Below are positions 3,911-7,272 of a stretch of 12,682 nucleotides of DNA, piece after piece. Position 1 is the stretch's first letter, and each line of letters begins with the position of its first letter. Source of the DNA: a virus; UHGV virus genome UHGV-0126489; one strand, written 5' to 3'. Under the pieces are notes generated by a model. It saw only the letters and a program-made list of their open reading frames with translations. It ran no database searches and was not told the origin of the DNA. Both the position numbers and the translations under genes were made by a program.

Positions 3911-4560
3911 GCCGCCATCTCCCTGACCAGTTTTTCCGCCTGCTGGCGAACCTGCGCCAGAAACGCCTCACCACATGCCTCAAGTTCATCGCGCCCGATG
4001 TAGCTAATTGCCGGTCCCTTCCAGGTCTTGTCGAAAACAGCAATAGCACCAGCGAAGAAAGCGCCTGTCGGCACCTGCTTCTCATCCTTCGGGATAAACC
4101 AGGCAGGCAGTTCAAAACCAATACGCCCGCGAATAAAAGCAATATGGTCCGCATCTTCCGGCCACCACACTTCGCTGGTGGCAGCTTTGATCAGGAAAAC
4201 ATAGCGCCCACCCTTATCACGCATGGCACTGGCATGTTTCATGATGTAACGCATGCCGGTGATGTATTGCCCCTCATGCTGACTGGCGCGGCTGTATGGG
4301 GGATTACCAAAGGCAGCCCCTTTAAGCTCCGCAAGACGTTCTGACCAGTCATGCGCCAGCGCGTTGTCTTCCGCCGTGTAATACGCAGCACATTTGGCGT
4401 TATCACCGTCAGTGAACAGATCCAGAACAAACGGGCCAAACAGGGTGTTAATTCCCCAGAAAATGTTGTCCGGCGTGCGCCACTGATCACCCACTTCCTT
4501 CAGTTCATGGGCTGGTTTGTTCCGCAGTTCCACCAACTCCTGGCAATATTTATTACTCAT
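3907..4560 (-). CDS. Phage Dam-type DNA N6-adenine methyltransferase, 217 aa
   Basis: FGNPPYS motif (N/D-PP-Y catalytic motif IV). Start set to ATG at 4560-4558 (MSNKYCQ...), overlapping the upstream stop as TAATG; the ORF track's longer start is at 4593. Confidence 0.7.
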   Translation of the reverse strand: MSNKYCQELVELRNKPAHELKEVGDQWRTPDNIFWGINTLFGPFVLDLFTDGDNAKCAAYYTAEDNALAHDWSERLAELKGAAFGNPPYSRASQHEGQYITGMRYIMKHASAMRDKGGRYVFLIKAATSEVWWPEDADHIAFIRGRIGFELPAWFIPKDEKQVPTGAFFAGAIAVFDKTWKGPAISYIGRDELEACGEAFLAQVRQQAEKLVREMAA

Positions 4561-5054
4561 TAAGCCCCCACGTAATTCCCTGACAGATACCACTCATCAC
4601 CCGATACAGCGCGCTTGCTGCTTTTCCGTAAACACTGCTCACGACGCGCCAGAAAATTGTTTCGTTCTGGCTGGGAGTGGCTTTCACGGAATGCCGCCAT
4701 CCACACCGTTGCAGCACGACGGTATAAGCCCCTGGACTCCAGTTCTTCCGCCTGGCGGGTCAGGCACAAAATCACCCGGGGATCGTTAGTGCCGACATAG
4801 AAATTGCGCACAGGTCTGGTTTCACGAACTGGTTGTGGTTCCGGCTCCTGCGCTCTCTCAGTCAGGCGTGGGAAATGTCTGCGTGTATCTCCTTCACAAC
4901 GGTGAGCCACACGCCCACTCTGACGTAACTTGCTTGCTGACTGCAGAACGCGCTGCCGTGAGTAACCTGCAAAAGCATCCGCAATGTCTCCGGAAGTACA
5001 CCCCGGATGGGCTTCAATGAATTTCTGAACGTCATTTAACAGACTCATGATCAC
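4560..5054 (-). CDS. yfdN: YfdN-like protein (164 aa) with PerC-like C-terminal motif
   Basis: Length equals recalled K-12 CPS-53 YfdN (164 aa). C-terminal LESRGLYRRAATVWMAAF resembles the PerC/Pch GL-x-RRAA-x-W motif. GTG at 5054 or ATG at 5048 with GGGGG 5 nt upstream. Symbol from memory, not alignment. Confidence 0.45.
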   Translation of the reverse strand: MIMSLLNDVQKFIEAHPGCTSGDIADAFAGYSRQRVLQSASKLRQSGRVAHRCEGDTRRHFPRLTERAQEPEPQPVRETRPVRNFYVGTNDPRVILCLTRQAEELESRGLYRRAATVWMAAFRESHSQPERNNFLARREQCLRKSSKRAVSGDEWYLSGNYVGA

Positions 5055-6043
5055 CCCCTGAATCCTGCCGGGATCTGGCTGTAGTCCACGTTGTCGTAAC
5101 TGGATTTGAAGTACGGGTCTTCGCGTTTTTCGGTGTACGTGCTTACGGACGGCGATAAGCGCAGGGAAAGCTCATCCCATTTTTCCCGCAGCTTCGACGG
5201 GCTGAGCACGTTACGGCACCAGAACGGATCGCGGCTGACGCGGCTGTACATCTCGCAGATTTGTTTGTGAGTACGACCATCCTGCACACACATCAGGCGA
5301 ATTTCGTTTGCCCAGGCTGTCCAGTTCGGTTCTTTGGGACGAACCACCTCGCCGTCACATTCGGCGGCTTGCTCGTACAGGGCGATGATTTTTTTCCAGA
5401 GCCACTGTGCGCAGGTCAAATCATCCTGCGTTCCCCACTGGCGCTTTTTAGGGCTGAATACAACCGCATCAGGATGGCGAGTTAAAAACTCCTGTTCAGC
5501 CGTTTGCGTGTCCGGTTGCGAAGCGTCCGGACGAGAAGAGGTTTTATTCTCTGTAGTAATCTCTGTTGTATTCTCTGTAAGATCATTGGGCCATTTTGAC
5601 CCGATGACAGCGTGTCGTTTTGAACCAATGGATCGTGTCATTTTGCGCCCATCCATCAGGTCACTTTGACCAGATGGAGAAGTGCATTTTGACCTGATGG
5701 ATTCGTTCACTTTGACCTCTTCTAAAAGCTCACTTTCATAGTTGATCGTGTAGAAGTTGGTCATGTCACGCTTCGATTTATTGAGTTGCTCGCGACGCAA
5801 AACCCCAAGTGATTTCAGGCTTGCAAATGTGCGTTTCAGAGTGGACTCTGACCAGAACGGAAACTGCTCCAGCCACTGTTCTGTCGTGTTATAAACCCAG
5901 CGAATTCCGCCATGCTCAGTGCCTGAATTCGTTTCATTCAGCCAGTAATGAAGCTGCTGCAACACAATTGCCTCATTCAGACCAATACGGCATGCAAGAT
6001 CACGATTTATCACAATGGGCTGGGATGTCATTAACAGGCTCAT
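5051..6043 (-). CDS. Replication initiator (lambda O-like architecture, origin iterons inside the gene), 330 aa
   Basis: ATG at 6043 with AGAGG 6 nt upstream. Six 23-bp iterons and an AT-richer tandem-repeat tract lie in the part encoding about aa 109-165, the linker position where lambda ori sits in O. K-12 yfdO is recalled as a 122-aa defective O fragment. Confidence 0.6.
   Translation of the reverse strand: MSLLMTSQPIVINRDLACRIGLNEAIVLQQLHYWLNETNSGTEHGGIRWVYNTTEQWLEQFPFWSESTLKRTFASLKSLGVLRREQLNKSKRDMTNFYTINYESELLEEVKVNESIRSKCTSPSGQSDLMDGRKMTRSIGSKRHAVIGSKWPNDLTENTTEITTENKTSSRPDASQPDTQTAEQEFLTRHPDAVVFSPKKRQWGTQDDLTCAQWLWKKIIALYEQAAECDGEVVRPKEPNWTAWANEIRLMCVQDGRTHKQICEMYSRVSRDPFWCRNVLSPSKLREKWDELSLRLSPSVSTYTEKREDPYFKSSYDNVDYSQIPAGFRG
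5548..5583. repeat. Three tandem 12-bp repeats TCTCTGTnGTAn adjacent to the iterons (AT-richer tract, candidate unwinding/accessory element)
   Basis: tctctgtagtaa / tctctgttgtat / tctctgtaaga read directly; they encode TENTTEITTENK on the coding strand. Confidence 0.4.
5592..5720. repeat. Candidate replication origin: six direct iterons with 23-bp periodicity, consensus about TCAyTTTGACCnGATGG
   Basis: TTTGAC/TTTGAA/TTTGCG cores start at 5595, 5619, 5642, 5665, 5688 and 5711 (spacing 24, 23, 23, 23, 23), each preceded by CA(T/C) and followed by a (G/A)ATGG-like element. Confidence 0.6.
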
Positions 6044-6212: not shown

Positions 6213-6391
6213 AGGACTGTCTCCTTCTGCCGGTTGAAATCACCCACAGCCCACTCTGCAAAGCTGTGGGTTACAATTTCCCTGTCACCTGGTACATTCA
6301 CTGCATAGCAATACTCCACCTTCGCTTTTCCACCCGGTACAGGAAGTGCAATCAGTTGCGAGCGACGGTAGTGTGTTGTTAAACTGTTCAT
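6053..6391 (-). CDS. Hypothetical protein (112-aa ORF); N-terminal about 55 aa look genuine, the remainder may be out of frame
   Basis: ATG at 6391 overlaps the upstream stop (ATGA), with GGAGA 9 nt upstream. After about codon 55 the translation becomes Ser-rich and low-complexity while the overlapping frame becomes protein-like. Confidence 0.3.
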
Positions 6392-6972
6392 GCGTTAGTT
6401 TCTCCACAACCAGAAGCAATCGACGCCACGACGCCCGGAGCTGCACACTCGCGGGCGTTACTCTTTTCCGGCGCACAAAAAACACGAAATAACAGTGTTA
6501 AATGCTCCTGCCACTTCGCCATTACTTGGTAGCTGTTCTCTTCGATTTGCTCACGCTCAGCCTGGTCAATAACTCCATCAGCAGTTGCCTTGCGTAAGTA
6601 CTGGGAATGCTTGCCAATCCATTCTATTGACTCCATCAGCCGCTGATTAATGTCACCATTGTCAATGTCATCAATGACCACCAGCGGCACAAACACCCCA
6701 TTACTACGACGGGCTATTGCATCTGTTACATGCCTGGTACCACTGGCATCCTGTAAAACCATGGCCCACTCAAGTGGAAAAATTTGATCCCCACCGCTAC
6801 GCAGTCTGTTATGCAATTGATCTTTTGCTGGGGTGATATCATCAGATTTATACAAACCAAGAATTTCTGCTGCTTCCTCATAGCCATGAGGTAAATCAGC
6901 AATCGTTCTTCGTATTGCTGCCACCAGCCATGCTGGTTGTTTATCAACTTTCCATTCAGGTTCTTTACCCAC
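6388..6972 (-). CDS. Hypothetical regulatory protein in the CII position (194 aa, GTG start 5 nt after the cro stop)
   Basis: Protein-like throughout ([27 protein letters not shown]...). Functional assignment is by gene order only. Confidence 0.35.
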
Positions 6973-6977
6973 GGTTT

Positions 6978-7175
6978 TTATGCCGCAGCACTGTTAGTCT
7001 TTTGATATAAAGACACGTCAACTTTCAGTTTCCCGTTAGTAATTTTTTCTAACTGGTACGCTCGGCCTTCAGGAATAATCTCAGGCCACTCTGAAACAGA
7101 CGGATGCTTAATACCTAGGGCTTCGGCGGTTTTACAAACTCCGCCGAAATAATTAATCACGTCGGATTTCCGCAT
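6978..7175 (-). CDS. cro: Cro-like repressor, 65 aa
   Basis: ATG at 7175 with GGGAGA 6 nt upstream; divergent from the repressor gene across the operator region; size and sequence pattern like lambda Cro. Confidence 0.7.
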   Translation of the reverse strand: MRKSDVINYFGGVCKTAEALGIKHPSVSEWPEIIPEGRAYQLEKITNGKLKVDVSLYQKTNSAAA

Positions 7176-7207
7176 TTCTGTCTCCCGTTAAATTACGTTA
7201 AGCAGAA

Positions 7208-7272
7208 ATGTAGGATATCCAACATGCCAATGTCAAGAATCCTACATGGGCATGTGGTAGGATTGCCTACAT
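7208..7272. promoter_or_regulatory. OR-like tripartite operator with divergent promoters (pR on minus strand; pRM region on plus)
   Basis: Three 18-bp sites: 7208-7225 ATGTAGGATATCCAACAT, 7230-7247 ATGTCAAGAATCCTACAT, 7255-7272 TGGTAGGATTGCCTACAT. Minus-strand TTGACA (7236-7231) - 17 nt - CTACAT (7213-7208). Site 3 overlaps the repressor ATG at 7271. Confidence 0.6.

Follow-up and report, generated by a model that had tools for sequence, protein, structure and literature searches.

Iterons and AT-rich repeats within the initiator gene

The window analyzed here is a stretch of 12,682 nucleotides (nt) from UHGV virus genome UHGV-0126489, the early region of a lambdoid Escherichia coli prophage of the SfII/mEp460-like kind. 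Its replication initiator gene, encoding 330 amino acids (aa), carries six contiguous head-to-tail iterons of 23 bp beside three tandem 12-bp repeats, all within its own codons (Table 1). The region from about 5500 to 5722 is very probably the vegetative replication origin of the phage, a prediction drawn from sequence comparison, and it lies in the codons for the linker between the two folded domains of the initiator. A preliminary description of this DNA had placed six 23-bp iterons and three 12-bp repeats at 5548 to 5720. Both arrays were recovered, in 5545 to 5722, and those coordinates are right to within 3 bp, but the stretch constrained as DNA reaches farther, to about 5500.

Table 1. 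Features of the initiator gene, the predicted origin, and the surrounding early region
Feature	Initiator codons	Position	Strand	Detail
Initiator gene, 330 aa		5051-6043	-	
N-terminal domain, putative iteron reader	1-107	5723-6043	-	folded ~14-101
Helical C-terminal domain, lambda O homolog	183-297	5153-5497	-	38% identity
Flexible C-terminal tail, ...DYSQIPAGFRG	298-330	5054-5152	-	
Six contiguous head-to-tail 23-bp iterons		5584-5722		repeat search
Iteron units		5584-5606, 5608-5630, 5631-5653, 5654-5676, 5677-5699, 5700-5722		
Triple 12-bp tandem repeat, ACAGAGAATACA-like on the gene-sense strand; proposed unwinding element		5545-5580		
GC-rich segment past 12-mers; possible promoter-distal origin edge		5500-5544		
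pR-like promoter, TTGACA-18-TACATT, upstream of cro-like gene		7207-7236	-	consensus match
cro-like gene		6978-7175	-	
CII/YmfL-like gene		6388-6972	-	
YmfM-like ORF, 112 aa		6053-6391	-	phrog_1170, 1e-69
DUF4222 ORF, 70 aa		6000-6212	-	phrog_1343, 1e-33
PerC-like YfdN, next after initiator		4560-5054	-	PerC domain PF06069, 1e-09
LexA-DNA-binding-domain protein, 108 aa		3584-3910	-	PF01726, 2.6e-19

Successive iterons start 24, 23, 23, 23, and 23 bp apart, and the sixth (5700 to 5722) is degenerate in its outer, GATG-containing half. The consensus on the + strand is cATcgGGTCATTTTGACCcgATG; the unit TCAyTTTGACCnGATGG reported earlier corresponds to consensus positions 8 to 23 plus the following base. 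Read in the sense of the gene, the core is CATCnGGTCAAA(A/G)TG, with an A-tract at its center. Each 23-bp unit also has partial dyad symmetry (CATCnGGTCA-yTT-TGACCnGATG, 5 to 9 of 10 positions), which is best in units 1 and 4. Self-identity at a lag of 23 is 0.58 over 5584 to 5722, compared to a maximum of 0.46 among 12,144 other 139-nt windows of the same sequence, whichever lag between 10 and 40 is taken. The iterons are thus genuine, with a periodicity well above anything chance would produce. A tandem-repeat search found no other array in the window, no cluster of DnaA boxes lies near the repeats, GATC is not enriched (three sites in 5400 to 5900), and Rfam returned zero families in the whole window.

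The 12-mers (TATTCTCTGTAG, TAATCTCTGTTG, and TATTCTCTGTAA; spanning 5548 to 5579 according to Tandem Repeats Finder) form the AT-richer tract that had been noted beside the iterons, with a GC content of 0.31 to 0.33 over 5545 to 5580 versus about 0.50 around them. Of all 36-mers in the gene, this tract is the least stable, with a free energy (dG) of −40.3 kcal/mol that falls at the 99th percentile (window mean, −49.3; standard deviation, 3.6), and its sense strand is purine and A rich, as in the AT-rich tract of lambda. Past the 12-mers, the GC-rich segment contains a palindrome, CGTCCGGACG, at 5524 to 5533 and an inverted repeat, GTCCGG-N11-CCGGAC, at 5510 to 5532; an inverted repeat with 12-bp arms occupies the equivalent place in lambda ori.

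Over its full length the initiator matches phrog_391, "replication initiation O-like" (E = 1e-101; residues 1 to 330 on profile positions 1 to 298), and PHROGs alone names its family. Scans of the protein against Pfam and NCBIfam gave zero matches, for Pfam even at E values up to 10. PHROG families named "DnaD-like helicase loader" match residues 2 to 170. An AlphaFold2 model has two folded domains joined by a disordered linker at residues 103 to 183, where the predicted local distance difference test (pLDDT) score is 23 to 33; because of this linker the mean pLDDT of the whole model is low (53.9), and the model is usable domain by domain. Both repeat arrays lie in codons 108 to 167 (iterons in 108 to 154, 12-mers in 155 to 167), and thus in the linker-encoding part of the gene, as first proposed. 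The N-terminal domain has a winged-helix-like pattern of helices and strands (pLDDT 60 to 77). Residues 183 to 294, in the C-terminal domain, share 38% identity with lambda O (E = 2e-17) and belong to a lambda-O-type family of 2363 clusters at 50% identity. The model of this domain (pLDDT 72.6) had no significant fold match in the PDB, and sequence searches of PDB chains with the whole protein, the C-terminal half, or a profile of the C-terminal domain returned zero matches.

Conservation of the repeats as DNA

The initiator of the window was compared with those from phage HannyBb, from a Citrobacter prophage, and from a metagenomic relative, a set of four orthologs with 71 to 80% protein identity. 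The preliminary description had named loss of the repeats from homologous initiators as evidence against an origin; all four orthologs keep the 12-mers and the register of the six units, with its one 24-bp step.

A periodicity inside a coding region could also arise from a low-complexity peptide linker, with no cis-acting role for the DNA. The repeat region does encode a disordered linker at pLDDT values of 23 to 33, the 12-mers are read in frame to give TENT-TEIT-TENK, and the 15-bp repeats of SfII-type initiators (see below) are likewise in frame, giving SDPSK-like repeats. However, the invariant iteron core GGTCAAAATG (gene sense) is read in frames 2, 1, 0, 2, 1, and 1, and its translations across the six iterons are EVKV, RSKC, GQSD, GRKM, GSKR, and GSKW. 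A period of 23 bp is not divisible by three, so the core falls in all three frames and cannot be a peptide repeat.

Codon usage in the four orthologs argues in the same direction: conservation at synonymous sites in the repeats greatly exceeds that in the folded domains, whereas the peptide is less conserved. At conserved residues, the fraction of identical codons is 0.89 in the iterons, where protein identity is 0.66, and 1.00 in the 12-mers, where protein identity is 0.96. The corresponding values are 0.55 and 0.78 for the N-terminal domain and 0.50 and 0.74 for the C-terminal domain. Third-codon-position identity is 0.88 to 1.00 over approximately 5520 to 5670, 0.69 to 0.72 in the two distal iterons, and 0.4 to 0.55 elsewhere; over the GC-rich segment from 5500 to 5544, it is 0.79 to 0.93, compared to 0.4 to 0.55 in the domains. 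The 12-mers themselves are 97 to 100% identical among orthologs that are otherwise 71 to 83% identical. By these comparisons the constraint on the repeats evidently acts at the DNA level, and a purely peptide-based origin of the periodicity is extremely improbable.

A predicted origin with the layout of lambda ori

The order of elements at the locus, from promoter through N-terminal domain, iterons, and AT-rich tract to C-terminal domain, is that of lambda O and ori, a likeness already pointed out in the preliminary description. Reading the region as an origin is supported by this shared layout and by the C-terminal domain, 38% of which is identical in lambda O. In lambda, the annotated 18-bp iterons begin at 39034, 39054, 39078, and 39101, a spacing of 20 to 24 bp, and occupy O residues 116 to 144, followed by the AT-rich tract and the inverted repeat. 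The two origins thus place iterons and a downstream AT-rich tract in interdomain linker codons at nearly the same residue numbers (108 to 154 for the iterons here). They also share a similar period (20 to 24 bp in lambda and 23 to 24 bp here), an A-tract in each iteron, a homologous C-terminal domain, and transcription of the origin from a pR-type promoter; judging from gene order, a transcript from the predicted pR-like promoter of the window (7236 to 7207) would run through the origin. The window differs from lambda in having an N-terminal domain unrelated in sequence, another iteron sequence, six units rather than four, an AT-rich tract built of three tandem 12-mers, no P gene, and a C terminus that reads IPAGFRG where lambda O has TDWIYGVDL.

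The best PDB matches to the N-terminal domain are the RepA_N plasmid initiators 4pql and 5kbj. In RepA_N proteins, such as RepA of pSK41, a winged-helix N-terminal domain binds iterons located within the initiator's own coding sequence. The matches are weak (E = 0.01 to 0.05; template modeling score, 0.51 to 0.56; 16 to 18% identity at E = 0.01), the initiator has no Pfam RepA_N match, and RepA_N plasmids differ in host range and C-terminal domain.

The earlier statement that the iterons are more numerous and longer than in lambda holds as to six units versus four, but the comparison gives no support for calling their number or length unusual, as the lambda period is similar and Shiga toxin (Stx) phages have six. 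In the Stx phages 933W and P27, the four iterons nearest the AT-rich tract matter most and are bound best (PMC7466680). The window resembles these phages in having six iterons with the four proximal units most constrained, and the Stx phages differ in their lambda-type O, P, and iterons. The predicted origin represents a new specificity type within a familiar architecture, and the replication module is a variant without a loader gene and with a DnaT-type tail on the initiator.

Under this reading, the N-terminal winged-helix domain would bind the phased array of six 23-bp iterons, with dimers probably occupying the partly palindromic sites, and wrapping of the iterons would yield a complex resembling the lambda O-some. 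This complex, together with transcription from the pR-like promoter, could strain the adjacent AT-rich triple 12-mer until it opens. The lambda-O-type C-terminal domain and the flexible tail might next recruit the replicative helicase of the host, with the tail docking host DnaB-DnaC on the opened origin and, in relatives that encode one, a phage DnaC in the same way. Iteron binding, 12-mer opening, and helicase recruitment are each inferred.

Several observations weigh against the origin assignment. The fold match of the N-terminal domain to the iteron-binding RepA_N proteins is weak (E = 0.01), and the domain is neither a Pfam Phage_rep_O domain nor convincingly alignable with the N-terminal half of lambda O. 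The frozen synonymous sites could also stem in part from recent recombination tracts, although the region of conserved synonymous sites still carries nonsynonymous differences.

Iterons need not mark an origin at all. Plasmid iterons also serve copy control and incompatibility, and the array could consist of initiator-binding sites that serve, for instance, in autoregulation, in controlling copy number, or in excluding related phages, with replication initiated elsewhere or dependent on recombination. Phages whose only replication gene is an O homolog have not been the subject of experimental replication studies (PMC12315714), which leaves room for such arrangements. However, the iterons adjoin an AT-rich tract that is conserved and of maximal instability, arranged exactly as in lambda and within a lambda O homolog; no other repeat array was found in the window, and no DnaA-box cluster near the repeats. 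We consider this alternative improbable compared to a replication origin.

Joint inheritance of N-terminal domains and iterons

Comparison of related initiators identified four N-terminal domain classes, which pair with four iteron families at the same gene position, whatever the C-terminal domain. The window-type N-terminal domain always occurs with 23-bp GGTCAAAATG iterons, on three C-domain/tail backgrounds. Initiators of the SfII/SKA5 type have a C-terminal domain 99% identical to that of the window, a different N-terminal domain, and 15-bp CCGTCAAAATCTG iterons; their protein lengths of 308, 313, 318, and 323 aa follow from iteron copy number. The mEp460-type N-terminal domain keeps its GTGCAGGAnATTCACCA iterons both on its own C-terminal domain and on an O-type one, in a pair with N-terminal domains 81% identical and C-terminal domains unrelated. 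A fourth type (L046 and L177) has its own 23-bp repeats. From these pairings, the N-terminal domain and its iterons appear to be inherited together as a specificity module.

The AT-rich repeats follow a separate pattern. The same triple 12-mer is present in L046 and L177, which belong to a different N-domain/iteron class, and the 12-mer module has therefore been swapped independently of iteron specificity. Such independence is as expected for a generic unwinding element, the role predicted for it here. One relative (L336, 3001-3996, P0120) has four 12-mers instead of three.

Iteron copy number also varies among relatives. SfII-type genes (L071 and L076) differ in 15-bp steps, from 3.3 to 6.3 iterons, and in one natural variant (L335, 1501-2400, P0013) an exact 93-nt in-frame loss leaves two iterons; this two-iteron variant comes from a short-read contig in which assembly collapse is possible.

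Replication without a loader gene

In lambda, O is followed by the helicase loader gene P. When lambda P, DnaC, and DnaB were used as tblastn queries, no homolog was found in the window or in 30.8 kb of mEp460_4F5 (all E > 0.1), in agreement with the original observation that no such gene follows the initiator and that the next gene encodes a PerC-like protein. How the helicase is recruited, raised there as a puzzle, is a recognized open question for O-only lambdoid phages: in a 2025 survey, 34 of 314 lambdoid phages, such as LLS, have an O homolog alone, and their replication is described as "not yet understood" (PMC12315714). The same survey names mEp460_4F5 as the closest relative of the LLS repressor and Cro (PMC12315714). 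LLS and its like share with the window a replication module consisting of an O homolog alone; the survey provides neither origin anatomy nor a mechanism of helicase recruitment, and it differs from the present analysis in this respect.

Two alternatives leave the C-terminal tail of the initiator without a role. Its C-terminal domain could bind DnaB directly in the manner of plasmid Rep proteins, possibly with DnaA, or a hidden phage loader such as YfdN could act. The gene yfdN lies directly downstream in all 80 loci with an SfII-type C-terminal domain, and YfdN carries no functional assignment over its N-terminal 100 residues. Against this, a Ren-like gene stands in place of yfdN in HannyBb-type loader-less phages, yfdN is truncated in the two-iteron relative (L335), and annotation of the family is as a transcriptional activator; on these grounds YfdN is unlikely to be a hidden loader. 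The tail peptide, moreover, is conserved in loader-less phages, and a mechanism in which it is irrelevant seems unlikely as a whole, though less so than the other alternatives considered here.

A DnaT-like tail and its association with loader type

The last nine residues of the initiator, SQIPAGFRG (codons 322 to 330, 5054 to 5080), match SQIPPGFRG of DnaT at 8 of 9 positions. Both sequences are extreme C termini (...DYSQIPAGFRG in the initiator and ...DSQIPPGFRG in DnaT of E. coli K-12). The likeness does not extend beyond the tail, as the initiator contains neither the DnaT N-terminal domain nor its three-helix C-terminal domain that binds single-stranded DNA. Some annotations nevertheless give the initiator gene the name of primosomal protein I, DnaT. 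Initiators whose N- and C-terminal domains are unrelated retain the tail.

Tails and loader genes were surveyed in IMG/VR loci, with DnaC and P sets chosen for having DnaC or P. All 80 loci with an SfII-type C-terminal domain have the DnaT-like tail, and none has a loader gene. The tail is likewise present in all 80 loci with a HannyBb-type C-terminal domain, 11 of which carry a full-length DnaC homolog that is 49% identical to E. coli DnaC and starts 7 nt past the initiator stop codon. The gene upstream of dnaC ends in [IV]PPGF[RK]G in 80/80 DnaC-selected loci (in one case with three extra residues), and the upstream proteins of this set represent at least nine unrelated N-terminal and at least four C-terminal classes. 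Among 79 lambda-P-linked loci, the upstream tail is TDWIYGV[DE]L and GFRG occurs in 0/79. An ortholog 80% identical to the window initiator with a non-DnaT tail (...DWNSADGWEDVL) precedes a P gene. The DnaT-type tail persists in about 150 loader-less loci.

The same C terminus is found in cellular and other prophage genes. Proteins of the E. coli dnaT-dnaC operon and of ydaU-ydaV-type pairs of the Rac prophage share with the window initiator a C-terminal ...[IV]PxGFRG. A 285-aa DUF1376-like class is presumably YdaU. In initiator relatives (for example, L144, 4473-6149, and L007, 2476-3018), a DnaC homolog begins 2 to 7 nt after the tail gene, as in dnaT-dnaC; the window differs in that no dnaC follows its initiator.

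Other C termini recur as well. Among 150 representatives of the O-type C-terminal domain, 16 tails are DnaT-like, about 25 are lambda-like (NTDW..G[LIV]), about 12 are WNS.E.WE..L, and the others fall outside these classes. DnaT-like P.GFRG, lambda-like NTDW..G[LIV].., and HWNS.EAWE..L recur as C termini in the family representatives P0121-P0270. Because recurring C-terminus classes are few in P0121-P0270, swappable adaptor tails are suggested to be a general feature of the lambda-O-type C-domain initiator family.

A strict model in which the tail replaces a loader was rejected because tail and phage dnaC co-occur in 11/80 HannyBb-type loci. Instead, the survey leads us to infer that the C terminus of the initiator may specify the type of loader, with a DnaT-type tail directing DnaC-type loaders of phage or host and a lambda-type tail directing P. 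For the window, this makes recruitment of host DnaB-DnaC by the initiator tail the most likely route, at roughly even odds in our estimation. Somewhat short of an even chance is the broader possibility that ...[IV]PxGFRG is a portable adaptor coupling origin- or fork-bound proteins to DnaC-type loaders, and that O-only phages kept the adaptor and discarded the loader gene. Brezellec et al. drew a parallel between O-P and DnaT-DnaC at the level of gene organization (PMC5509034). Literature searches for the PGFRG tail motif, or for ydaU/ydaV linked to DnaT, found nothing.

The adaptor proposal has to be weighed against a number of points. The initiator's C-terminal domain has no similarity to the C-terminal domain of DnaT. 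Contact between DnaT and DnaC is undocumented (PMC5778457, PMC11087952), and a 2026 cryo-electron microscopy study proposes DnaT's N-terminal domain as the recruiter of DnaB/DnaC (PMC13377028). The tail is encoded right beside dnaC, and part of their association could come from block inheritance in mosaic genomes. Finally, the two codons that close the tail resemble the ribosome-binding site of the next gene, a confounding factor for two residues. These codons are always AGG/AGA followed by GGG/GGA, rare Arg codons and never CGN (window, 5051-5062; L012-L253), and are followed by the stop codon and, 2 to 9 nt on, the start of the next gene. They probably double as the Shine-Dalgarno sequence of that gene. 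In favor of the proposal, the Gly, Pro, and Ile/Val residues of the tail are encoded by varying codons, yet the peptide itself does not change.

The tail could instead link the initiator to the replication restart machinery, PriA and PriB, in the place of DnaT and with no direct contact to DnaC-DnaB. It is, after all, the tail of a preprimosome component, and DnaT acts with PriA and PriB (PMC13377028, PMC5778457). In cryo-electron microscopy structures, however, DnaT meets PriA through its C-terminal domain (residues 84 to 153) and PriB through its linker, and the initiator has neither. The tail lies outside these preprimosome models, in which the DnaT C-terminal domain is built from residues 84 to 153 and the tail has no assigned role (PMC13377028). 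The strict genomic partner of the tail is dnaC, not priA or priB. A route through PriA/PriB is thus rather unlikely, and docking of DnaB-DnaC remains the reading we prefer for the tail.

While the origin itself is a routine lambdoid feature, its value is as a precise map of an uncharacterized type of origin specificity. If the adaptor reading is true, it would explain how O-only lambdoid phages replicate, and the tail of DnaT itself would supply the contact that is missing from the restart preprimosome to DnaB-DnaC; the replication restart field has no documented contact of DnaT with DnaB/DnaC (PMC5778457, PMC11087952, PMC13377028). The pairing of tail with DnaC, and its mutual exclusion with P on the same C-domain family, make the questions of loader and DnaT contact testable.

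The early region and its distribution

All genes of the rightward operon of the window are on the minus strand. After yfdN, gene order continues with Dam, a protein with a LexA DNA-binding domain, RusA, KilA-N, DUF968, and Q. The nearest phage record is mEp460_4F5, 98% identical to the window, and several complete genomes hold prophages 100% identical to it; the flanks of the window are common to SfII, SfIV, and SKA5. Requiring at least 80% of a 2-kb region, the origin region was found in 134 of 5426 complete E. coli genomes (~2.5%).

Between the CII/YmfL-like gene and the initiator, the open reading frames (ORFs) for DUF4222 and the YmfM-like protein lie on the same strand in different frames and overlap by 160 nt, both with strong family support, and public annotations choose either one or the other. 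The DUF4222 ORF also overlaps the start of the initiator gene by 44 nt. Farther downstream, the 108-aa protein consists of a LexA DNA-binding domain without a peptidase domain; phages of this group conserve it, with Dam and RusA on either side.

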